Part shown: in pieces, positions 3,258 through 63,179 of the stretch
How positions within the stretch are numbered: position 1 is the stretch's first letter
Layout: each line of letters begins with the position of its first letter
DNA from: a virus
IMG/VR virus record: IMGVR_UViG_3300011113_000257
Location: 32,001-96,000 of that record
DNA: 64,000 nt
Strand: one strand, 5' to 3'
Program-made: the position numbers and the translations under genes
The notes under the pieces: model-generated
The model's input: the letters and a program-made list of their open reading frames with translations, nothing else
Told to the model about the DNA's origin: nothing
Databases searched by the model: none

Positions 3258-3557
3258 TTATTCCTTGTTCTCATACGCGGTAAGCAATCCCGCCATCGCA
3301 GAAAGTGCTAATGCAACTGCAAAAAAGCGGAATGTTGTTGCATCGATTGTATACCAAGTTGCAAAGCCTAATCCTAGCCACACACTAGAGCACCACTCGC
3401 AAGTAAATAGGTATCCTATGCGTGTAGTTTCTGGTGGATAGCGGTTCCATATCTTATTTCTGACGTTAGAAAAAATTTCATCTTGCGTAACTAGCCTTGT
3501 AGCGCGATAAATTGCTAGTGAAAACACAATAAAATCAACAATATTTAGAGTTTGCAT
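3258..3557 (-). CDS. DUF1360-family membrane protein
   Basis: LAIYRATRLVTQDEI and LFTCEWCSSVW motifs; usual position next to portal. Confidence 0.75.
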   Translation of the reverse strand: MQTLNIVDFIVFSLAIYRATRLVTQDEIFSNVRNKIWNRYPPETTRIGYLFTCEWCSSVWLGLGFATWYTIDATTFRFFAVALALSAMAGLLTAYENKE

Positions 3558-3565
3558 ATAAATCC

Positions 3566-4223
3566 TTAGTTAGCGCTCAAAATTGAGCCAACTGGTGACC
3601 AGTTTTTTAGTCGTGAACCGCAACCACAAGACTTATCTTTTTTAACTGCGATAATTTTATTCGTAACTGTAATAAAACGTGTTATTTTTTGTTGGTCAAC
3701 GTCTTTTTGCGTGTATTGCTCCCTAAAAAACATCACAGGACCAGTACTAGAATCAACGCCAATGTAAACAGTTGTCTCATCTGCAATAACACGGGCAACA
3801 GGGAGCAGTTTTGAGCCTCTCACTGCAGAGTTTTGTTGGTGATTGATTTGGTACATATCTATGTTTGGATATGTTTCGCTTGGAGTAATGTGAACATTGG
3901 CTGGAAAAGTGTCTAAAAGTCTCAAGAGGGGTTTCCTATCGGATGTAGTGCGTGAATTGGAAGTCTTCCCAACCAAGCATTTCGGTAGCAAGTTCGGTGG
4001 AAATGATAATAGGTGATTCGGGACTTGAACTGTTCAGTCTTTTCTGAAAATCGTCTTCTGAATAAATGTAAGTAGCGTTTTTGAAGGCTTGTAGTTCCTC
4101 GCGAGGGATTGAAAGTGGTTTTGGTGGCGTTCCGTGACTAGTTAGGGCTTGAAGAAGCCTTGATTGGGGGTGGTCTGAGCGTGATGGGTTTAACCACACA
4201 ACACAGCAAAGGTCAGTTGTCAT
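3566..4223 (-). CDS. Two hypothetical proteins (3566-about 3991 and 3936-4223)
   Basis: Contiguous ORFs in the minus-strand operon; the first ends in a CGCGSRL motif; its true start is uncertain. Confidence 0.55.
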
Positions 4224-7059: not shown

Positions 7060-7307
7060 TATTTACTTTTCCTTTTCTTTTTCTATGTAGGGGCTTGCCC
7101 TACCCCCTTAGGGGTAGAGCAAGTCTTTACAACTTTGAGATAACTCAACGGTATCCACCTTGCATCTATCTGGCGTAGCCAAGTTCTCTGCTACTACAAA
7201 CATCGCAATCAGTATTACCGCAATGAATACGTTCCGAACACGTTCTCCGCGCTTAGTAAGTTTCATCTTGCTCTCCTTTTCGTTGAACCATTCAACTAAG
7301 GACAATC

Positions 7308-9936: not shown

Positions 9937-10858
9937 CTAGACTTCGTAGTCAATCGCGTCATCCCAGAGCAGGTCTTTAAGTTCATTTTCATACTTTGCT
10001 GAGTTCCAACCATTAGTTTTTTCCGAGATGTCTTCCTCATCAACAATCGAATCTAAAGACAAAACTGCCGTGTAGCCGTCATCCTCAAACATAATAATTA
10101 ACTTAGTGTCATCTCTTTCCGCGTCATCAACGATAGCAACAACAAAGGACTCGCCCGTACGATTAGTGTGGTACGCGCTCTGGAGAATTTCTAGTCTGCT
10201 CATAGCAAAAACATTACCGCATCCTTAGAAAGGCTATTTTTGCTTAAAAAACCTACTTAAAAACAGTAGTGAGCCTGTCGCTTAGGTTTACTATCTTGAC
10301 TATCTTGCTAGTGTTGTCTGGATTAAGTTCCCTAATCAACGCACTAGCCTTTGGATTATTGACCGCACTAAGTTGCTTATGGGCGTAGGCAATAGCCAGC
10401 CCCAAAGAGGTTTGAGTTCTACTCTCGAACGGAGGCTTTATTTCTTTGCCCTTCGAGGTCATTAGTGATACTGAATACTTCATACCTTTAGTCTACCTAA
10501 AAGATTTCATTTGTCAAGTTAATCAAAATACTCAATAACTACCGCGCCCACGAAAGAAACCGCGCCAACTATAAGGGTTGCTACCAAGTAAGTAGGCGTT
10601 ATCACTACTGGCTTTAGCAGACCGATAAACATAAGTTGTAGTTCTAGTAGTGCTAAAGGCAATGAGCCAATAGCAACAAAAGTTAAAACATCCCGTAAGT
10701 GGAATAGAAACATCTCTTAGACCTCCCACTCTCTGTAGCAATCTTGGCAAACCCAATCGAGGGTTATCCAATCGGTGCTTGACGGTGAAACATTAAAACC
10801 ACCGCGAACTGAATCTCCGCACTGTGGACACTGATGTGATTCCTTAAACTTTAACATC
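9937..10858 (-). CDS. Four small hypothetical genes (9937-10203, 10253-10483, 10519-10713, 10717-about 10858 Zn ribbon)
   Basis: Each has an RBS or a leaderless promoter. Confidence 0.6.
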
Positions 10859-10929
10859 TTGCTCTCCTTTTTATCGCCCCTTGCGATAGTTCTATCATAA
10901 CACAAGTCTCTGACCTTTGTCAAGTTAAA

Positions 10930-11056
10930 CGCTAGACGCGCCACCGAAAGGGGATAAGGTGACGCGCCTAACATTTATGAGTGGGGAGAAAGGGGGGGCA
11001 ACCCCACTCGTATTCGGAGCATAGGGAGAAGGGAGAAAACCCTCGCTCTACGAACT
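10930..11056 (-). ncRNA. Candidate three-hairpin small RNA with anti-Shine-Dalgarno loops
   Basis: Extended -10 TGCTAAAGT at 11062-11070; three stems with loops TTTTCTCCCTTCT, TTGCCCCCCCTTTCT and TTATCCCCTTTC; no ORF. Confidence 0.7.
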
Positions 11057-11204: not shown

Positions 11205-11935
11205 TCACTCCCCAATCTCTGGAATGTCGTAGTCGTTCTGCCAACCGCACTTAGGGCAAGTCCAAACACCGCGCCCCCAGTCGTCAAAAGATACTTCCTC
11301 TGTACCCTCAAACTTGCAGTCAATCTCCGCGCCTGACTGAAACTCAATAATGCCTTTGCACTCTAGGTCATCAATCTCTGCTGAATCCGCGTAGAATCCT
11401 GAACCTCTTAGTGAACCTTCGTAACTCATTTTGTTTCCCTTCTTCTATCGCCCCTTGCGATAAATCTATTTAACCACATAATCTGACTAATGTCAAGTTA
11501 CTTGATAACTGTGCCTGTCCAACCCTCTGGAATTGAGTATTTAGTTTTTAGTGCCGTGTGAAAAGTGTCCACAACTATCTGACAAACACCGTCTAGTATC
11601 TCGTCACTCATTCCGTCAAGGTATGTCCGCAAGTTTTCCTGCAACTGTTCTTGCAATTCAAAAGTATTCATCTTGTTCTCCTTTCAAGAGTAAAGTTCCC
11701 CAACCCTAAATTTCCAAAACATCTAGGGGTGGGGAATCCTTTATTTGTCGTTGATACCTAACAAAGCGAAAATTTCATCTTCGTTCAAGACAGTAACCTT
11801 GTCGCCACTATCATCAACAATTTTTACGCTAGTTACACGGTAAGAGTTAGCAACCAAGTCACGAACTTCTTGCGCCGTGTTAGCGGTAAAACTGTACTCG
11901 TTATCTTTCGACTTCATTGTTACGTTGTAAGCCAT
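11205..11935 (-). CDS. Three small hypothetical genes (11205-11429, about 11500-11671, 11741-11935)
   Basis: Strong RBSs GAAGGGA and GAAAGGAG before each ATG. Confidence 0.65.
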
Positions 11936-11959
11936 TTCGTTCTCCCTTCTTGGCTCTAC

Positions 11960-12152: not shown

Positions 12153-12188
12153 GACCCTAGTCTATCATACTAGGTTTGCTTTCGCAAG

Positions 12189-12267
12189 TCCCAAGAGTAG
12201 GAATCGAACCTACCGTGCCAAAGCGAGTGATTTACAGTCACCTTCCCCACCTTGAGGAATCCTTGGG
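12189..12267 (-). tRNA. tRNA-Tyr (GUA), atypical
   Basis: Acceptor CCCAAGG/TCTTGGG+A, anticodon loop CTGTAAA, T-arm GTAGG-TTCGATT-CCTAC, long variable loop; own promoter about 12286-12316; no encoded CCA. Confidence 0.8.
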
Positions 12268-14098: not shown

Positions 14099-14476
14099 AG
14101 AACAACCTTATCAAACAACCTGATAAAAGTCAAGCCAACAACTCATAACTATTTTTTCCGGGCAGCGGCGGCGGCAGAACTGAAATTTTTTATTTCTCCC
14201 GCGCAAGAAAAAAATCCCCACCTTTCGGCGGGGTTCTTTCTTTGGTTTAGGCTCTGGTTAGAAAGCGTTTTCCCTCGTGGCGGTGGAACAATGCGATTCC
14301 GTAGCGGTGGGCTACTTCTTTTCCGCATAAGTAGCAATTTGCTTTCCCGTAAAGTTTTCCAAACATTTTGTTCTCCCTCTATCGGTTACTTCCTGCAACC
14401 TGATAAATCAAGTATAACACACTAACCTGACAAATGCAAGTTAGGTGCGCCAGCCGTAGCCAGCGCACCCGTAACC

Positions 14477-15144: not shown

Positions 15145-17452
15145 TTACACCTCCCCTGCTTCTAAAGTTTCAAAGTAGTTGTTCACATCAACAATCGAGC
15201 AAGGCTCGCATTGTTCATAACCTCCGTCAAGACTGAACTTGTCTAGCGCGTTACCGCACTCTACGCACTTCTCATCTTCGCCTAGTGCTTCTTCCGCACC
15301 GCGTAGTAGCCATTCATCAAATCCTTGTAGCACTTTGCTACCTCCCTTTCTTGTATTCCCATTGTAGCGCATTAGCCTGACATTCGCAAGTTACCGCGCA
15401 AAAAGAAAGAGCGAGCCTTTCGGCTCGCCCCTCCTAGAGTTTAGTAAGTAGCAAAGGTTCGATTAGAGCCTAAGTCCTTAGCAAATTCGTAGATGTGTTC
15501 AAGGTTGATTGTTTTGCTTTCGCCCTTGTTGTTGAAAGCAACCGTGTCGCCTTGAAAGTAACGATACTTTTCCCAACCAACCGAGATAATTACCGCAACC
15601 CAGTCGTCTTGTAGGTGTCGCTTGAATACTTCTGCCCAGTCTACCTCGACAGTTTCATCTTCTTCTTCACTCCACACACTCCATAGGTTTGCTTCACCGT
15701 CTGGGTCAGCGTCAATAAATCCGTAAAGTGTTACGCCGTCTTTCTCTTGCGTAATTACTTCAACAGGATAGTTTGCAAGTTCTGTCTTAAACGCTTCCGC
15801 GTCTTTAACTGCAAAGTAGTTGCTTCGTGCCTGACCAAAAAATTGAGCCATTTCTTATCCCTTCCGCAAGTAAGCCCTTCTTACTCGCTGTATCTATAAT
15901 ACTAAATTACTTGACTATTGTCAAACTCTCCTTGTAAGAGTCCGCAACTTTTGCACACGAAATCATCTATCTCAAGTTCGTAAAAGTATCTGTGCTCGCA
16001 GTCTACGCGCCAAATTGAATAACACTCGCAAGCAAAACAACGGTGCTTATCTTCGCCGAGTTCGATTACCTCATCTTTTTGGATAATCCAATTACAAGTA
16101 TCACACCGAAAAGATTTCACTTTTTCATTCGAGTTGTTGCTGACGTAAATCCATTCCTCTGACATTAATCGTTCCCTTGTTCATAGCAGTTGTAGCAAGT
16201 CCAACCGCTTTCGATTAGGTCATCATCTAGCAAGTCGCATTGGCAGTTTATGGTGTCCGCGTTCATTAGAACACTCTCCCATACTCGTTTTCAACTACTG
16301 ATAAATCAACAGGTGATGTAACTTCCCATTGTTCGTATGGTGTTGGGTCGTAACTATCTCGGCATTCGTTACACCATAGTTCGGGAAACCAACGGTGCTT
16401 TTTAGACATTTCGGCGATTGGAAAGTCTTGTTCGCAATCCACGCAAAAATCGTTTTCTTCTGGTATTTCAACTCCAAGCCATTGTGTCATTTTGTTCTCC
16501 TTTTTGTTTTCGCGGGCTATCCGCTTAGTAATACTTTATCATACTATTTTGTTTGGTGCAAGTAGTAGGGGGCTTGCGCCCCCCACCGCATTTGCTAAAC
16601 GTATTCACATACTAGTTCTAGTAAATCCGCGTAAGTTTCTACCCCATTTAATAAGCCGTAGATAGCGTCTGTTAGTTCTGTAGAGTTCCTGATAGTTTCA
16701 ACTAGCAAACTTTCCTCAACTAGCAAGTCACCTGCAAGACAACGAATTGTCATTTCTGCACTCATTTTGGTTTCCCTTTCTTGTAAGGAGTTTCCTTACA
16801 TTTCTAATAGTACGGACTTTCTTGACATTTGTCAAGTGATTACGCAAACTCGTTTATTGCGTGTCGGCGTTGGGCAGACCTGTCACGATTACGGCGTGTA
16901 CGCCTATCCGCAAACTTTGCAGACTTTTGGTTTAGGACATAGTTCCCTCGACCTGTCACTAGATTGTCTAGTGGACTCTTGCGCTTAGCCATCTCTGACT
17001 CCTTTCGATAAATCTATTGTAGCACACTTCCCTGACATTATCAAATCGAACCGCGCTCGGCGTGTCGCAATTTAATAATCTCCGTAAAAAATTTCAGTTA
17101 TGAAAATAAGAAAACCCCCACTTTTGGTGGGGGCTTCCTTGCCTTACATAAATCGGTGGTAGAACTCTACTACCTTTTCCCGTGCCTCTTTCCAGTCTGC
17201 CGTAGCGCAGATAGTGACTGTCTGCTCGATACCATTCACATCATCTACCCAACCTATGGCTTCATAGATAGTCACGCCGTCATCATAGTCATAGACCCTG
17301 ACTTCGGCATCTACCGTTTCGTTCATCTCGATAGTGATTGCGTTGTCTGTTACTGGGTTAAGTAGCACCCGTGTAATTCGACTTGCTGGGTGGCGTAGCG
17401 TGGCTAGAAATAATCTAGTGGTTTCGCTGTATGTTGGAATTGTAGTTTCCAC
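15145..17452 (-). CDS. Run of small acidic / Cys-rich hypothetical genes (incl. 15145-about 15336, 15441-15851, 15902-16165, 16266-16490, 17144-17452)
   Basis: ORF track plus cassette signals; several further ORFs under 60 aa with clear RBSs. Confidence 0.65.
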
Positions 17453-21656: not shown

Positions 21657-21889
21657 TTTGATTTCCCTTTCTATCAGTAAGCCTTTCTTGCTGATAAAAC
21701 TATCATACCACACTATCCTGACATTACCTAATCGGGGCTTTAGCGCGTGTCGCAGAAAAAATTTCAGTTATCTAAAATTACGAAACCCGTACCAAAAAAA
21801 TTTCAGTACGGGCTTCGCTTAGAAACTGTCGGAAGGCTGACACACGCTGGAAGGACGATACCCCCCGACAGGGCTTATGGGTTATTCAA

Positions 21890-23698
21890 TTATCCGTTAC
21901 GGTTTCCCATAGCGGTTAGTGCTTTCGCACACGCTTGTCCGATAGCGTTGGACGCTTCCGTTGGAGAAGCCACACCGCTTAACGGCTCTACCGTTGTCCC
22001 CCTTAGGAGACTTCTGGCACTTGAACCGTTGTCGAACGGTATCCATACTACCGCCACGCCGTTGCTCTCACACTGCGACACCCAACTCCGAGCCTTTTGG
22101 GTCTCGTCGTAAGTGTACACGCCGTCGGATACCACGACTAAAAGCCTAGCACCGTCACCGTTGAGCAGGTTCAACTCGCCGTCTATTGCCTTGAACGCCT
22201 TGTCAAACTTTTCCGTACCGTCTGGTGCTGTGTACACCGTTACGTCCGTTAAGTGCTGACCAGACTTGAGCGTAGGGAACACGTCGTCGCCGTAGTACAC
22301 CATCGCGCACTTGCCTTGGACTCGCCGAGTTGCTTCCGACATTACCCACGCCGTTGTCGCCATCGGTTGCATCGCCGAATTCATCGAACCGCTAATGTCT
22401 ACCATCACGCCGACCTTTAGTGTTGGCTCGTCCGTTGTCTTACGGACTCGCTTACGCCAAGGTTGCGCCGTTGGTTGCATACCTATCGCCTTGTGTGCTT
22501 CGTTCTGCATAGCCGAGCGAGTTCGTAGCCGTCCACCGGGAACAATGCTACGCACTTCAACAACATCGCGCTCGCGATACTTTGCACGCTCTAATGCGCT
22601 CGCCACTTTCACCGCGCTGATACGCTCGTCTGCCGTAGGCTTACGAACCTCTGTTGCATAACTACGAGTACGAGTAGATGCTGATGGACCAGTACCTCGC
22701 CCGAAAACTTCTTGAGCAACTTTAACATTCTCACGACTTTGCTTTGCACTGTCCGCGCGATTCTTAACTTCCTCTTTCCATTCCTCTGACTCCTCTTGGT
22801 CTGCAAGTTCGGAGTAGTTAGACACCGCAACATTTTCAGATGCTTCTTTCAACTTCTCAAGTAACTCTTTTAATGCTTCGCCAACTTCAGATGTAGACTC
22901 ACCACTTCCACCAGAAGTACTTTCACTACCAGAATTATCCTCGCCACGTTCGTTTGCAAGGTCGCGAACAATCTGTGCCCACTCACGCGCTAATGGATAA
23001 ACAGGTTCCATGTTTCGATGGTCTGTGTGTGTAATGAAACGCTCGATAACACTGCATAACTTTTCAACAGTTTCGTTGCCTAAGTATTCCTCTATAAATT
23101 CTGTAACCTCTAGAACATCATCACGCTCTAAAATTCCACCAATGATTCGACCATGCACTAGTCCAACTAAAGTTGCAATGTTTGAAACACTACCCTGTGT
23201 CAAATCCTCTGACTCAAAATCTGCAATAACAATTTCCATTGCACTTGAGCATAGAAATGCGCGATACCGAGCATCAAGCAAAATACCTTGTGCTTCGATT
23301 CGTGATTCCTCAAGAAGCATTAGTGCTTCGTACTCGTCTGACTTTAATGCTTCGTAAGCAGACTCTAAACTCCACTTCGAGAAACGAGCGTGAAATGCTT
23401 CGTGCATTATCGCGCCAGTTGCCTTTGGAAATTCGTACTGCGTTGAGCGTTGATTAATGTCGCTAATGTGTTCTGGCTTAATGCCAAACCCGAAAGCAAT
23501 TTCTGTGTTCACTTCAATTTCTGCAATCGCTGGCTTGTAGCACGCTGGCGCATTGCTACCTGCAACAGGAGATGCAAGTCCAACTAAATCACCGCGACCT
23601 GCGATTGAGTTTGCTAGTTGCGCAATCTGCGAACCAACTGCATACCATTCTGGATGTCTTTCACCAGAAGTCTTACTGTGTGTGTCAATGTGTGCCAT
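21890..23698 (-). CDS. VWA-domain protein with HExxH metallopeptidase-like N-terminus (CobT-like)
   Basis: HEAFH, LEESRIE; MIDAS DISGSM, GT, VVVSDG; start set by RBS GGAAGGAG. Confidence 0.85.
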   Translation of the reverse strand: MAHIDTHSKTSGERHPEWYAVGSQIAQLANSIAGRGDLVGLASPVAGSNAPACYKPAIAEIEVNTEIAFGFGIKPEHISDINQRSTQYEFPKATGAIMHEAFHARFSKWSLESAYEALKSDEYEALMLLEESRIEAQGILLDARYRAFLCSSAMEIVIADFESEDLTQGSVSNIATLVGLVHGRIIGGILERDDVLEVTEFIEEYLGNETVEKLCSVIERFITHTDHRNMEPVYPLAREWAQIVRDLANERGEDNSGSESTSGGSGESTSEVGEALKELLEKLKEASENVAVSNYSELADQEESEEWKEEVKNRADSAKQSRENVKVAQEVFGRGTGPSASTRTRSYATEVRKPTADERISAVKVASALERAKYRERDVVEVRSIVPGGRLRTRSAMQNEAHKAIGMQPTAQPWRKRVRKTTDEPTLKVGVMVDISGSMNSAMQPMATTAWVMSEATRRVQGKCAMVYYGDDVFPTLKSGQHLTDVTVYTAPDGTEKFDKAFKAIDGELNLLNGDGARLLVVVSDGVYTYDETQKARSWVSQCESNGVAVVWIPFDNGSSARSLLRGTTVEPLSGVASPTEASNAIGQACAKALTAMGNRNG

Positions 23699-25351: not shown

Positions 25352-25475
25352 AGTGAGTATTTCCTTTCTTTATGTCTTTTGTCCCTGTGACATTTCTAGT
25401 TTAGCATAACGCTATGATGGAGTCAAATCGGGGTAGGAGTATGTCTAAGGAGACCTACCCCGACCTGACTTCTAA

Positions 25476-39994: not shown

Positions 39995-40547
39995 CCTTTA
40001 ATCTGAAGAGGCGGTAGATTTTTCTACCGTCTTTTCTTTTTTTCCAAACACGGAAGAATCCAAGTTCAGAACCAATCACGCGAACTCTTTTATAAACTCC
40101 TGTGCGGGTTCCTTCTGTATCAGAACCTGCTTGGTCACTTGTTGTATCACCCTCGACAACTTCATAACCAACTGTTAACCCCCACTTGCGAACCACCCCA
40201 ACAACAATACCTACATGCGTTGCTCTTCCTTCTTTCTCGAAGTCATAGAACGCTAGGTCTCCTTCTTTAACTCTCCACCATTGTATCTGTTCAGAGTTTT
40301 TAAGTAAGTGTTCATAACCAATATTACAAGACGCAAACCCTTTTTTACTTGAAACTTCAACTAACTCACTTGCACCGATTTTTGCAAAGCACCACGAAAC
40401 GAACATGGCAGAGTATGGATTGTTGTTTAACCCGTACCACTTTCCGTACTTACTATCTCGATTAGGTCCGTTGGTGTAACCAACCTCTTCTAAAGCGACA
40501 CTTATAAGTTCGGACTTGGAAGTTTTAATCTTCGGAGGATTCTGCAT
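39963..40547 (-). CDS. CHAP-domain protein with catalytic Cys replaced by Ser
   Basis: KYG.WYG..PYSAMFVSW, GDL.F.D, HVGIV, EGDT. Confidence 0.75.
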   Translation of the reverse strand: MQNPPKIKTSKSELISVALEEVGYTNGPNRDSKYGKWYGLNNNPYSAMFVSWCFAKIGASELVEVSSKKGFASCNIGYEHLLKNSEQIQWWRVKEGDLAFYDFEKEGRATHVGIVVGVVRKWGLTVGYEVVEGDTTSDQAGSDTEGTRTGVYKRVRVIGSELGFFRVWKKRKDGRKIYRLFRLKVTESTSSIHE

Positions 40548-40944: not shown

Positions 40945-42021
40945 ATGCCTGAAGTATCAATACCAAAGAGTGTACCAACTGCTGATGACTTATTTGGTGC
41001 AAAGACGAAACAACTTGCGCGTTTCTGCGAAGAACCAGCGTGGTCTGCCTATAACCCGTCTATTTGCTACACCGAAGAGCATGGCTACTTGGTACTCCTA
41101 CGCTCCTCAAACGGCTGGCTACGCGACCACAGACCAGAGTGGCAAGTAGAAACAGGTGAAGAACTTACCACCGAAGATTCTTATGAAACTCCCGGAGAAT
41201 GGTATCAGGCTTCATATATTAATTCCGTTTTAGGAACAGAGAAGTATTTTAGAAATAGAATGTTTCTTGCAAGTCTAAACACAAAAACACTTAATCTTTC
41301 TTACTTGAAAGAAATAGACCTAACTCAGGCTTACGCACAAGCCCCAGCAAAACTTATAAGAGGAATTGAAGATGGAAGACTCTACTACGACGGAGAAACG
41401 CTACGAATCTCTGCGACGGTATTTGAAATTGGGCACATTAATGTTGCTCGTATTTGTTCTGTTGAACTGGACTTAAGCGGAGATAGCCCACGCGGTGTTT
41501 CTTTTGAGATGTTTGATTCTCCTATTAATGAAGACACCGTTGAGAAAAACTGGATGCCTGTTCACAAGTCATCTATTTTTAATCCAGATGATGTTAATTT
41601 TGATTATCTCTATTCTTCAGGAAAGACTTACACGATTAAAGACCACTCCCTCAAAGAAGTTGGTGGACCAGCACCATCCGTTAGAGGTGGCTCACAACTT
41701 ATCGGTTTAGAGAATGGAACTATGTTAAGCATTGTTCATCAGTGCGTTTCAGCCGAGTACATCAGATTTGCTAACCTAAGCAAGGAAGCACTATTCCGTC
41801 GTCGCTATGTTCACCGCTTTATGCAATACGACGAAAAGGGAAGAATCATTAAAGTTTCCGATATGTTTAACTTCCTAAACAAGTCAATAGAGTTTGCAGG
41901 TGGAATGGCAATCCACGAAAACAAACTGCTAGTTAGTTTCGGTGCCCTAGATTCATCAGCACACATAGCATCCATCCCCCTTAAAAACGTCTTGGCGAAT
42001 CTTCGTCCTCCTCGTATTTAA
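40945..42021 (+). CDS. Five-bladed beta-propeller glycosidase/phosphorylase-like protein (GH130-like)
   Basis: YNPSI, EDGRL, EKNWMP, RGGS and IEFAGG motifs. Confidence 0.65.
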   Translation: MPEVSIPKSVPTADDLFGAKTKQLARFCEEPAWSAYNPSICYTEEHGYLVLLRSSNGWLRDHRPEWQVETGEELTTEDSYETPGEWYQASYINSVLGTEKYFRNRMFLASLNTKTLNLSYLKEIDLTQAYAQAPAKLIRGIEDGRLYYDGETLRISATVFEIGHINVARICSVELDLSGDSPRGVSFEMFDSPINEDTVEKNWMPVHKSSIFNPDDVNFDYLYSSGKTYTIKDHSLKEVGGPAPSVRGGSQLIGLENGTMLSIVHQCVSAEYIRFANLSKEALFRRRYVHRFMQYDEKGRIIKVSDMFNFLNKSIEFAGGMAIHENKLLVSFGALDSSAHIASIPLKNVLANLRPPRI

Positions 42022-42066
42022 GTCCTATGAAGTCGACAAAATCGAACTTTACATTATAGAGGAACA

Positions 42067-42444
42067 ATGGTACTTAGCGGAGAAGACGACGACAACGAGT
42101 CTGAAAAAGATGTAGAAGATGTAATTGACTTCCTCGTTGCAACAGGTGCTTTAGAACTCACCTCTATAGATAAAAACGGAGACCCTGTTTACAGGATTAC
42201 TAGTATTTGTAAAGACTTGTTTCCCGATTTGTATTATGAACATATGAGACAAGCAGATGACACCTCCTTTGCTTTATGGCAAAAAGGTTTACTAGAAATT
42301 GCTTTTGGTGAAGATGGTACTAACTATGTCACGATGACCGCAGAGAACTACTTAAAGTATTTAGATATTGCTGACGAGTTATCCGAAGAAGAGGAAAGCG
42401 TTATGTTTGTCTTAATAAATAAGAACATCTTGGACGCTCAGTAA
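42067..42444 (+). CDS. Acidic hypothetical protein
   Basis: ORF track. Confidence 0.6.
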   Translation: MVLSGEDDDNESEKDVEDVIDFLVATGALELTSIDKNGDPVYRITSICKDLFPDLYYEHMRQADDTSFALWQKGLLEIAFGEDGTNYVTMTAENYLKYLDIADELSEEEESVMFVLINKNILDAQ

Positions 42445-42482
42445 AACTTGACACCACTCTAGGCTTTTTGTAGCCTATACAT

Positions 42483-42662
42483 AGTTCTTGATGTATTAGG
42501 TGTTTTCTGCCAGTTCTACTAATACACCAAGACTTTTCGCAGAAATGTGGTTTGTTCTCCTTTCCTACATTTTTTTGGAAGCGGGTTGCTCCGCCACTTG
42601 CGAACACGGAGCATATATAAAAACCGCCCCACCGAATTTAATTCTGCGTAGGGCGGTTTATT
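42483..42662 (+). ncRNA. Candidate three-hairpin small RNA with anti-RBS loop, plus terminator
   Basis: Promoter TTGACA(42448)-N17-TAGCCT(42471); three stems; loop 2 is TTTGTTCTCCTTTC; terminator 42621-42663. Confidence 0.7.
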
Positions 42663-42671
42663 TATTAAGTT

Positions 42672-43193
42672 TTATAGTCTTCTAAACTGGATTTTCTTAC
42701 TCCAGATTTTTTCAATTTTTACTACTCCACCAGGCTTCGGAGAATGTAAAACTTTTCCGTTTCCTGCGTAGATTGCGACGTGGTAAATATGACCACCTGA
42801 CGAAAAGAAAAATACCAAGTCACCGACCTTAGCATCGCTACGAGCAATCTTTTTTGACTGCTTGTATTGACCTCCAGTGGTTCTTGCTACTTCCTTACCT
42901 TTCTTCTTGTAGATGTACTGAGTAAACCCAGAACAGTCAAAACAGTTAGGACCTGTTCCACCTTTGCAGTAAGGGGTTCCTAAATACTTTAGACCAGTTT
43001 TGTATGTGGATAGAAGGTTTGCTAAAAGGCTTTGATTAGCCCTAGCCTTACTTTTTATTTCTCCTAGACTTATATTCGACTTTACTGATAATTCATTAGC
43101 GTTGGCTTGACCCTGGGCTACTGGTGGCGATACGACCATGACGGACATAAGAAGCGCAGTAACGGTGGTCAAAACCTTGGTTCTGACTAACAT
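42672..43193 (-). CDS. Secreted NlpC/P60 peptidase
   Basis: Signal peptide; LGTPY..GG..FDCSG, GDLVFF, HVAIY.G, HS. Confidence 0.92.
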   Translation of the reverse strand: MLVRTKVLTTVTALLMSVMVVSPPVAQGQANANELSVKSNISLGEIKSKARANQSLLANLLSTYKTGLKYLGTPYCKGGTGPNCFDCSGFTQYIYKKKGKEVARTTGGQYKQSKKIARSDAKVGDLVFFFSSGGHIYHVAIYAGNGKVLHSPKPGGVVKIEKIWSKKIQFRRL

Positions 43194-43344
43194 AGGCTTT
43201 AAGTTTACCAGACTGGTATAATATTCGGCAAATCCAAACCTTACAAACCCCACTAAAACGGTTTTTGGATTTGTCGTCTTCTAAAGTTTTTTATCCAGTG
43301 AAGTCTGAAAAAATGACTTTTCTATTATATAGAAATCAAAACTG

Positions 43345-44146: not shown

Positions 44147-45247
44147 ATGACTGACGAAATATGGCACAAATTAGAACGCTCAAACTCACCCCTGACTTCT
44201 CAAGTGCAGATGGATGATGTTACAGAGAACCTAATCAAACCATTTGACTATCAGTCAGAAGGTGAAGAATCCTTCTACCCATATCTAGTCCCTCTAGATA
44301 TTCCTAAGGACTTCGGTATCGGAGTCATTGTTGGAGCCTCTGGCACGGGCAAGTCGACTCTTCTCAAATCATTTGGTAACCCAGTACATCCCGAATGGTC
44401 AGCACAATCTATCGCTTCTCACTTTGAGAGCGCAGTAGAGGCAAATGAGAAGTTCTCGGCGGCGGGTTTAATGTCCGTGCCAGACTGGGTAAAGCCTTAC
44501 AGCGTCTTATCTACTGGTCAGCAATTCCGAGCAGACCTTGCTCGCTCGCTTCACGACGGCGCAGTCATTGACGAGTTCACTTCTGTTATTGATAGAACTG
44601 TTGCCAAGGCAGCGTCTACGGCTATGTCTCGGTATGTACGCAAAAACGGAATACGCAACATTGTTCTAGCAACCTGCCACAGAGATGTCCTTGAGTATTT
44701 AGAGCCAGACTGGGTTATTTACACAGACCGTGGCGAGTGGACTACTGGGAGGTCACTTCGGCGACCAGAACTGGACATCACGATTTATCCTTGCTCAAAC
44801 GAAGTTTGGGGCTACTTCGCTAAGCACCACTATTTATCCGAATCGCTCAACAAGTCAGCACACTGCTACTTGGCATTCAGCGATGGAAAAGTAGTTGGCT
44901 TCGTTGCTTCACTGGCGTACCCCTCAGGAAGCGTACAGAACGCTTACAGAGAGCACCGCTTAGTAATCCACCCTGATTATCAGGGCTTTGGCATTGGTCC
45001 ACGTCTTTCCGAAGTTATAGCCAACCACTACATTAGTAACGGCAAGCGTTACTTCTCAAAGACTTCCCACCCCCGTCTAGGTGGATACCGCGACCAGTCC
45101 CCTGTATGGAAGCCAACCTCAAAGAACCACATGAAACGAAAAGACGGACAAGACGCTACAAAAACACGGTGGACTATTAATCCTGACCGTTGGTCTTATT
45201 CTCACGAATTCATCGGAGAGCCCGGAAAAATCGATTCTAAGATATAA
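44147..45247 (+). CDS. ABC-type ATPase fused to Mom-like GNAT acetyltransferase
   Basis: GASGTGKS, LSTGQ, IDEFTS, TCH; then HHYL and RLVIHPDYQGFGIG. Confidence 0.82.
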   Translation: MTDEIWHKLERSNSPLTSQVQMDDVTENLIKPFDYQSEGEESFYPYLVPLDIPKDFGIGVIVGASGTGKSTLLKSFGNPVHPEWSAQSIASHFESAVEANEKFSAAGLMSVPDWVKPYSVLSTGQQFRADLARSLHDGAVIDEFTSVIDRTVAKAASTAMSRYVRKNGIRNIVLATCHRDVLEYLEPDWVIYTDRGEWTTGRSLRRPELDITIYPCSNEVWGYFAKHHYLSESLNKSAHCYLAFSDGKVVGFVASLAYPSGSVQNAYREHRLVIHPDYQGFGIGPRLSEVIANHYISNGKRYFSKTSHPRLGGYRDQSPVWKPTSKNHMKRKDGQDATKTRWTINPDRWSYSHEFIGEPGKIDSKI

Positions 45248-62399: not shown

Positions 62400-63179
62400 T
62401 TATCCTTCTTTCTTTGTCGTTTTGGTAGCCGATGCTACAGGTTGCTTCTCACCGAAAACAATGTCAAGCATACGTTCGATGGAAAGATTTTCTTGATGAA
62501 CAGCAGAGCCAAGGCGACCTTGAACACGCTCTCCTGCTTCGTACTGATTATTACGTTCTACATACATCTTACGAACTTTGTATGCAGGACTTAATGGGTC
62601 AGGATTAGGAACTTCCTCAGTTGTAATTGCACCAAGGATGTCATAAAAGTATGGAGCCTGAATTGCTAACTGACCCTGCAAGTAAGGACGCATACGTCCA
62701 TCTTGACCTGTACGAGCCATTGCAGTTAAGACTACTGCTTCTAATGGATTAGTTGCGTGCATAGTTAAATCACGAAGGTCGCGTAAAAGACCGCCCATGT
62801 GACGAAGTAATTCGCCCCATTGTTGCATCTTCATTTGCTCGCTACCTGCGATGCTATCTACACACTTAACTTGAAGTTCAGAGATTGAGTCAATAATAAG
62901 ACTCTTAAACTGATGTTTTCCGCTCTGAAGCCACTGATATGCCTTAATGACATCTTGATAGTCTCGAACTTGTACGACACATGTGTCCCAAGTTCCGTCT
63001 GCTACTGGTGGCTCCTCTCGGAGTGGGTCCCAATACTTAACAATGATAGGGAGGAATCTATGTCCACCCTCAACGTCAAGCATTAGGCGCGGATACGGCG
63101 CGGTGACCGCAAAAGTGGACTTTCCAACTTTTGACTCACCGTAGACCATAACTGTTAGTGAACGCTGAATGTCACCCAT
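62400..63179 (-). CDS. Sak4-like AAA_24 ATPase (single-strand annealing)
   Basis: YGESKVGKST, LDVEGG, IIDSISE. Confidence 0.85.
   Translation of the reverse strand: MGDIQRSLTVMVYGESKVGKSTFAVTAPYPRLMLDVEGGHRFLPIIVKYWDPLREEPPVADGTWDTCVVQVRDYQDVIKAYQWLQSGKHQFKSLIIDSISELQVKCVDSIAGSEQMKMQQWGELLRHMGGLLRDLRDLTMHATNPLEAVVLTAMARTGQDGRMRPYLQGQLAIQAPYFYDILGAITTEEVPNPDPLSPAYKVRKMYVERNNQYEAGERVQGRLGSAVHQENLSIERMLDIVFGEKQPVASATKTTKKEG

Follow-up and report, generated by a model that had tools for sequence, protein, structure and literature searches.

An element of about 180 nt on the plus strand of an uncultured freshwater phage genome may encode a small RNA in which one hairpin loop would mask a whole class of ribosome-binding sites (RBSs), namely those built on the part RARRGGAGARCRAR. 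The probability of this reading, in which the RNA would be transcribed from a promoter of its own, as the 3' end of the operon located upstream, or in both ways, is estimated at about one half. The window analyzed, a continuous stretch of 64,000 nt to which all coordinates below refer, corresponds to bases 32001-96000 of a 110,857-bp IMG/VR virus record.

Genes for a portal, a terminase, a primase, a ribonucleotide reductase and an exonuclease can be found in the window. The portal shares 69% identity with that of the Actinomycetia phage DSL-LC01 and 47-61% with those of large Microbacterium and Arthrobacter phages. DSL-LC01 is itself a phage assembled from a lake metagenome, for which an actinobacterial host is predicted only (PMC10611076). 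Considering the portal similarity and the predicted host of DSL-LC01, an actinobacterial host is plausible for the present phage, a large phage with a probably virulent lifestyle.

The element occupies a gap of 227 bp (42445-42671) between two converging genes. The upstream one codes for a 125-aa protein, 38 further variants of which, 60-91% identical, can be found in public metagenomes, and these variants indicate that the phage group is widespread. Among cultured phages, neither a DNA match to the element region nor a protein match to the 125-aa gene was found. The element itself is available in four distinct copies: that of the window, that of a 119.7-kb contig (G001, also numbered L003), that of the identical contigs L004-L006, and that of L002, which is cut off inside hairpin 3. 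The features of the region are as follows.

42067-42444, plus strand: 125-aa ORF upstream of the element; acidic product, no Pfam or PHROG family
42448-42453, plus strand: -35 box TTGACA of the promoter-like site; perfect, invariant in four of four distinct homologues with variable flanks, the same hexamer as in early promoters
42460-42477, plus strand: hairpin A, 6 bp; overlaps both the spacer of the promoter-like site and its -10 box
42471-42476, plus strand: -10 box TAGCCT, 17-nt spacer after the -35 box; matches the consensus at three of six positions (TA...T)
42486-42532, plus strand: hairpin 1, stem of 13-14 bp, 19-nt loop at 42500-42518
42534-42581, plus strand: hairpin 2, 10-bp core stem (42541-42550 with 42565-42574) and 6-bp lower stem, enclosing loop 2
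42551-42564, plus strand: loop 2, UUUGUUCUCCUUUC, 14 nt; exact complement of GAAAGGAGAACAAA; candidate anti-RBS seed
42587-42613, plus strand: hairpin 3, 7-bp stem, 13-nt loop at 42594-42606, CCACUUGCGAACA
42621-42667, both strands: two-way intrinsic terminator, with a GC-rich hairpin at 42621-42659, an A-run before it and a U-rich run after it
42672-43253, minus strand: NlpC/P60 peptidase gene, converging on the element

Regarding loop 2, a preliminary description of this DNA had noted that it complements 13 nt of two RBSs, and exact matches are indeed present at 11673-11685 and 16491-16503, both of them real RBSs located directly before an ATG. When only Watson-Crick pairs are counted, pairing is longer than 8 nt at just these two of 181 start sites, and control loops that combine shuffled flanks with the CUCC core attain 13 nt in 6.5% of cases (P 0.065); given this core, the Watson-Crick 13-mers are marginal. 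Once G-U pairs are admitted, loop 2 is predicted to form duplexes of -17.2 to -19.4 kcal/mol with five start sites, and the number of start sites at -17 kcal/mol or better is 5 versus 0.3-0.6 in control loops that keep the CUCC (P 0.005-0.02), while in gene-internal windows the pairing never goes beyond -12.3 kcal/mol. At the scale of the genome, pairing over at least 12 nt (G-U allowed) can be found at 11 sites besides the element itself, six of which end at position -1 relative to the ATG of a small early ORF.

These six sites share one RBS part, RARRGGAGARCRAR-ATG, with which loop 2 is predicted to pair over 13-14 nt, in register from -14 to -1. The only pyrimidine of the part, C(-4), faces the only G of the loop, and the 14-nt complementarity has the same boundaries as the 14-nt loop. 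The candidate targets are listed below with the predicted energy or length of pairing and, where available, the state of the orthologous site in G001.

7267-7279, minus strand: RBS part AAAGGAGAGCAAG-ATG of a 52-aa early ORF with start at 7266; -17.2 kcal/mol; kept in G001
10858-10870, minus strand: RBS part-ATG of a 46-aa early ORF with start at 10857; -17.2 kcal/mol; kept in G001
11672-11685, minus strand: GAAAGGAGAACAAG-ATG of a 57-aa early ORF with start at 11671; -19.4 kcal/mol, only -13.8 in G001
11936-11949, minus strand: GAAGGGAGAACGAA-ATG of a 64-aa early ORF with start at 11935; -19.3 kcal/mol; identical in G001
14367-14379, minus strand: GAGGGAGAACAAA-ATG of a 39-aa early ORF with start at 14366; 13 nt pair, G-U allowed
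16491-16503, minus strand: AAAGGAGAACAAA-ATG, also written AAAAGGAGAACAAA-ATG, of a 74-aa early ORF with start at 16490; -17.5 kcal/mol, -17.2 in G001

In G001, the pairing is kept at four of the five orthologous sites and the same part can be found before additional genes, which brings the total there to 8-9 sites. The six target ORFs of the window, of 39-74 aa, are unrelated to each other; several harbor CxxC pairs, and a promoter with a short leader hairpin usually lies before them. The complementarity of loop 2 to translation-initiation regions is beyond chance, with targets that share one part; since this part is repeated, the six targets are not independent, and the match could reflect common descent. 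The preliminary description had gone further in proposing a multi-target RNA that covers AGGAG-type RBSs. The multi-target character is supported by sequence insofar as loop 2 complements the part of six early genes, but the coverage of the type as a whole does not, as only six of about 180 sites pair strongly while 46 contain GGAG.

The other two loops behave differently from loop 2 in this respect. No start-site enrichment was obtained for loop 1, in agreement with the earlier remark that it has no clear target, and no start-site target of loop 3 rises above background. Pairing of loop 3 with early leader hairpins, by way of a shared UCGCAAG, was likewise not above background and was rejected. 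Non-coding hairpins with C-rich loops can also be found elsewhere on the minus strand, at 10926-10977, 10979-11009 and 25421-25470, with stems of 8-20 bp and loops of 12-16 nt (UUAUCCCCUUUC, UUGCCCCCCCUUUCU, UCUCCUUAGACAUACU); their predicted pairing with start sites falls short of that of loop 2 in both strength and specificity.

Loop 3 had also been described as antisense to the CHAP gene. The motif CCACTTGCGAAC does recur at 40182-40193, within a minus-strand CHAP-like gene to which a plus-strand RNA would be antisense. However, the 180-nt region also matches the window at one further, unrelated 12-mer and at four 11-mers, and a search space of this size is estimated to yield about 1.3 matches of 12 nt. 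In the relatives, the CHAP gene reads CCACTTGCGAAT or CCACTTACGAAT and loop 3 starts with G, and the pairing is reduced to 10 nt or broken, owing to differences at wobble positions of the gene and at the first loop base. The proposed CHAP antisense was rejected on these two counts, a match at chance level and its decay in the relatives.

With regards to conservation, the four copies are about 87% identical over 1.3 kb, and all of them keep the TTGACA, the TA...T and the layout of hairpins and terminator (L002 ends inside hairpin 3). Loop 2, for which a lack of conservation in related phages would have counted against the proposal according to the preliminary description, is identical in four of four copies, a weak indication among relatives that are 11-15% diverged. 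The whole of hairpin 2 is included in an invariant block of 48 nt, which is only the fourth longest invariant run in the 4.1-kb four-way alignment (116, 51, 49, 48, 47, and 47 nt). In the comparison with G001 alone, to which the average identity is 87%, 149 perfect runs of at least 48 nt, and up to 179 nt, can be found genome-wide, and the pairwise identity of the 86-nt core of the element lies at the genome median. The identity to G001 is mosaic, with long identical stretches, e.g., 44813-44991, 21795-21969, and 62419-62584, a pattern that suggests recent exchange between the two phages and that makes short invariant blocks weak evidence of constraint in this phage group. The conservation of the 48-nt core is no better than that of neighboring coding DNA.

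Regarding transcription, the promoter-like site announced in the preliminary description, TTGACA-N17-TAGCCT, is present together with three hairpins and a strong terminator, and it begins 4 nt past the stop codon of the 125-aa gene. A generic promoter scan did not list this site because the -10 box matches the consensus at only three of six positions. In the relatives, the TTGACA and a TA...T (TAATCT) at the 17-nt position are kept, and three also display a perfect TATAAT with a 15-nt spacer. Sites of the form TTGACA-N16-18-TAnnnT number 17 in the genome versus 4.3 +/- 2.2 in shuffles (about 4-fold) and are mostly located before early genes; examples of the -10 boxes of early promoters in this phage are TAAGAT, TAGACT, TATCCT, and TAAAGT. 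The promoter-like site fits this early, host sigma-70-like class, which leaves the earlier view of a later-expressed RNA without support, and the start of transcription would be predicted at about 42483-42484. In the relatives, the stem of the terminator is invariant and its loop variable, and transcripts of the plus-strand RNA and of the converging NlpC/P60 gene on the minus strand would both end here. Hairpin 2, which has a U7 run, was also considered as a terminator and rejected, in view of its AU-rich stem and 14-nt loop.

The stretch from the stop codon at 42444 to the hairpins is devoid of a terminator, and the element would therefore also form the 3' end of the operon located upstream; the description of the RNA as stand-alone is not supported on this account. 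A further hint comes from hairpin A, whose arms read TAGGCT/AGCCTA in the window and TAGGTT/AATCTA in the relatives. Its pairing survives a C-G to U-A change, and, if hairpin A is an RNA structure, this compensatory change hints at read-through transcripts from the 125-aa gene. Both observations can be accommodated by an alternative in which the element is a structured 3'UTR of the 40945-42444 operon, whose hairpins would serve to shield the 3' end, to bind a protein or to direct processing, while the TTGACA would be fortuitous or minor and the complementarity of loop 2 would have no regulatory role. That hairpin A lies 5' of the proposed start and over the -10 box, that the element is conserved no more strongly than nearby genes, and that loops 1 and 3 are without targets above background are all in line with such a 3'UTR. 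This alternative is nevertheless considered unlikely, as the estimated chance of finding, in the 227-nt gap, a perfect TTGACA followed by a TAnnnT at the correct spacing is about 0.003, in a class of sites that is itself enriched 4-fold, and as the exact, in-register complementarity of a 14-nt loop to a standard RBS part would be left unexplained.

The predicted folding energy of the element is below that of shuffled controls on both strands, with z values of -3.7 for the plus strand and -6.05 for the minus strand, and the minimum free energy does not distinguish between the two. On the plus strand, one and the same four-hairpin fold is predicted in all three full-length homologues, and loop 2 has a predicted mean unpaired probability of 0.70 in the window copy and of 0.92 in its relatives (three homologues). 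The stem of hairpin 1 stays paired through one U-A to C-G exchange, through several G-U changes and, in L002, through deletions that are matched on both arms, while its loop drifts. Hairpin 2 is invariant in the four copies, and five of its plus-strand G-U pairs correspond to A-C mismatches on the minus strand. In the stem of hairpin 3, one compensatory U-A to C-G change and one C-G to U-G change can be found, the resulting U-G pair of the relatives again being an A-C mismatch on the minus strand, and the loop is invariant except for its first base. Covariation is thin, as two pairs are changed on both sides and 24 of 500 shuffles reach as many. Taken together, hairpins 1-3 would form a unit of conserved structure with a conserved and accessible seed loop, as judged from only four close copies in which conservation does not exceed that of the surroundings. 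Three features point to the plus strand: the promoter-like site, the four-hairpin fold that recurs in the homologues, and the G-U pairs of hairpins 2 and 3.

In another alternative, the minus strand, which folds at least as well as the plus strand, would be the meaningful one. The element would then be either a relic or decoy of an early expression unit (a hairpin and GAAAGGAGAACAAA) that has lost its promoter and start codon, or a DNA-level or protein-binding site, and its anti-RBS appearance would merely be the reverse complement of a duplicated RBS. Read in this direction, a hairpin, a spacer and GAAAGGAGAACAAA follow each other in the orientation of the early genes and in an arrangement that resembles an early leader, and the complementarity could thus be inherited rather than selected. 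However, no start codon follows the motif, as the preliminary description had correctly noted in stating that loop 2 is not itself an RBS, no minus-strand ORF survives in the relatives, and the minus strand has no promoter-like site in the stretch from the terminator to hairpin 3. In addition, a dead relic should decay, yet the stems are kept by compensatory changes, while in real early units the Shine-Dalgarno sequence (SD) is single-stranded after the hairpin and not enclosed in a loop. Considering also the five G-U pairs of hairpin 2 that would turn into mismatches, a meaningful minus strand is judged decidedly unlikely.

A small protein encoded by the plus-strand ORF 42545-42685 (46 aa from the ATG at 42545, with a hydrophobic N-terminus) is hardly credible, for although in the window, L003 and L004 the frame remains open for 39 to at least 50 codons, no SD precedes the ATG, the ORF crosses the terminator hairpin, its C-terminus differs in each relative, and the substitutions (4 : 1-2 : 3-4 over the codon positions) show no third-position bias and mostly alter residues, those in the stem of hairpin 3 keeping the base pairing. 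As the minus-strand ORFs are broken by stop codons in the relatives, the earlier statement that the region has no credible ORF is borne out on both strands.

The distribution of the element was examined with nhmmer and a covariance model of hairpins 1-3, which revealed no paralogue in the genome and no homologue in 50 kb of DSL-LC01 or in any of five larger contigs of related phages; in DSL-LC01, neither the hairpin nor the RBS part RARRGGAGARCRAR was seen. Scans of IMG/VR by protein, by a 20-mer core and by the arms of stem 2 with a free loop returned the same five contigs and chance matches only, a metagenome scan returned one contig that was already known, and scans of genome contigs returned nothing related. 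In phages with an NlpC/P60 protein of about 50% identity, tRNA-like genes, as read by eye, can be found after its gene on the same strand (L011-L019, ~3480-3900), and in phages with 34-42%-identical homologues of the 125-aa protein the downstream DNA is unrelated. As far as these searches reach, the element is single-copy and restricted to one narrow phage clade.

With ARAGORN, no tRNA was found in the element region, where the 80% threshold gave no call and the 60% threshold only spurious ones, and a tRNA-like nature of the element was rejected for want of an ARAGORN cloverleaf. When the whole window was compared with Rfam 15 at gathering thresholds, no match was obtained, and for 42300-42800 with E values up to 10 only sub-threshold matches appeared, namely rli38 (27 bits versus 49, on the terminator) and LhrC (RF00616; 18.3 bits versus 110, E 3.6), with 6C (RF01066) and c4 (RF01695) unlisted. 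Judging from these comparisons, the element belongs to no Rfam family. Elsewhere in the window, ARAGORN called a tRNA-Tyr of 80 nt at 12188-12267 on the minus strand, and the tRNA family was among those for which Rfam at gathering thresholds gave no match; either this tRNA is atypical or Rfam tRNA matches went unreported.

Several known systems can be compared with the RNA proposed here, which is plausibly a candidate phage sRNA family of a known mechanistic kind, as far as its sequence allows a comparison. The loops of the 6C/B11 RNA (RF01066) of Actinobacteria pair with RBSs (PMC10470900), a pairing that is chaperone-independent according to earlier work (PMC6486639), as cited in PMC10470900. 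As in 6C/B11, which is stable, a hairpin RNA with an open pyrimidine-rich loop would bind the RBSs of several mRNAs and repress their translation, the function being predicted here, and the likely host belongs to the same phylum. Unlike 6C, which is a host gene whose two loops with consecutive cytosines bind G-tracts, the element is a phage gene with a single CU-rich loop against a 14-nt AGGAG-type part, and it lacks an Rfam match. In the c4 antisense RNA of phages P1 and P7, loops pair in trans around the RBS of a phage mRNA and block its translation (review: PMC12197685). The element resembles c4 as a putative phage-encoded RNA with a loop complementary to the RBS region of phage mRNAs, but c4, which likewise gave no Rfam match here, controls the single gene ant in temperate immunity, while 6-9 unrelated early genes would be concerned here.

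Among Firmicutes, sRNAs of the LhrC (RF00616), RsaE/RoxS and RNAIII types possess several hairpins, and their UCC- or CU-rich loops occlude the SDs of many targets. Multiple hairpins and a CU-rich loop motif are shared with the element, but only one of its three loops is anti-SD, and its match to LhrC is non-significant. MicL and DapZ of enterobacteria are Hfq-dependent sRNAs derived from 3'UTRs, with an internal promoter located inside the coding sequence. As in these sRNAs, the element would share a terminator with the upstream gene and has its own promoter-like site at or just after the gene end; unlike in these sRNAs, this site is found after the stop codon and not in the coding sequence. 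In phage T4, RegB is a protein that cleaves the GGAG Shine-Dalgarno sequence of the phage's own early mRNAs and thereby ends early protein synthesis. The proposed RNA would be a functional analogue of RegB, with the difference that RegB cleaves its targets as a protein and the RNA would mask them (background on this endoribonuclease can be found in PMC9409239).

According to the preferred reading, a structured non-coding RNA of about 180 nt (~42483-42665) would be transcribed on the plus strand from the early-class sigma-70-like promoter, with a probable further contribution of read-through from the operon located upstream, and would be ended by the two-way terminator. Hairpin 2 would keep the 14-nt loop UUUGUUCUCCUUUC open, and in the infected cell this loop would pair with mRNA positions -14 to -1 of the RARRGGAGARCRAR-AUG part, which precedes six early ORFs here and 8-9 in G001. 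The pairing would hide both the Shine-Dalgarno sequence and the spacer and exclude the 30S subunit, and translation of this gene set would decrease as the RNA accumulates. If the RNA works in this way, its effect would be a delayed negative feedback while it builds up. Hairpins 1 and 3 could be scaffold or stability elements, or seeds for other, possibly host, targets. As to its origin, such an antisense RNA could arise in a simple way if an RBS part is duplicated and comes to lie behind an opposing promoter.

It can further be speculated that the phage runs an RNA-based translation programme, in which its many small early genes would be assembled from a few standard RBS parts, each matched by a hairpin RNA with an exactly antisense loop, and whole classes of early proteins would be shut off together. 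In this extension, which we consider quite unlikely, the present RNA would serve RARRGGAGARCRAR and the C-rich loops at 10.9-11.0 kb would serve GGG-type sites, the present RNA would have originated from a captured inverted copy of the RBS part, and the whole would be the RNA counterpart of T4 RegB.

In textbook phages, the timing of early protein synthesis is done by proteins such as RegB. To our knowledge, very few trans-acting RNAs from non-temperate phages are known, and we know of none from actinophages. If the preferred reading is true, a large virulent-type phage of freshwater Actinobacteria would time its early proteins by means of a base-pairing RNA directed at an RBS part that unrelated genes have in common, and the 14-nt loop and the 14-nt RBS part would be a simple pair for studying such regulation in hosts without Hfq.
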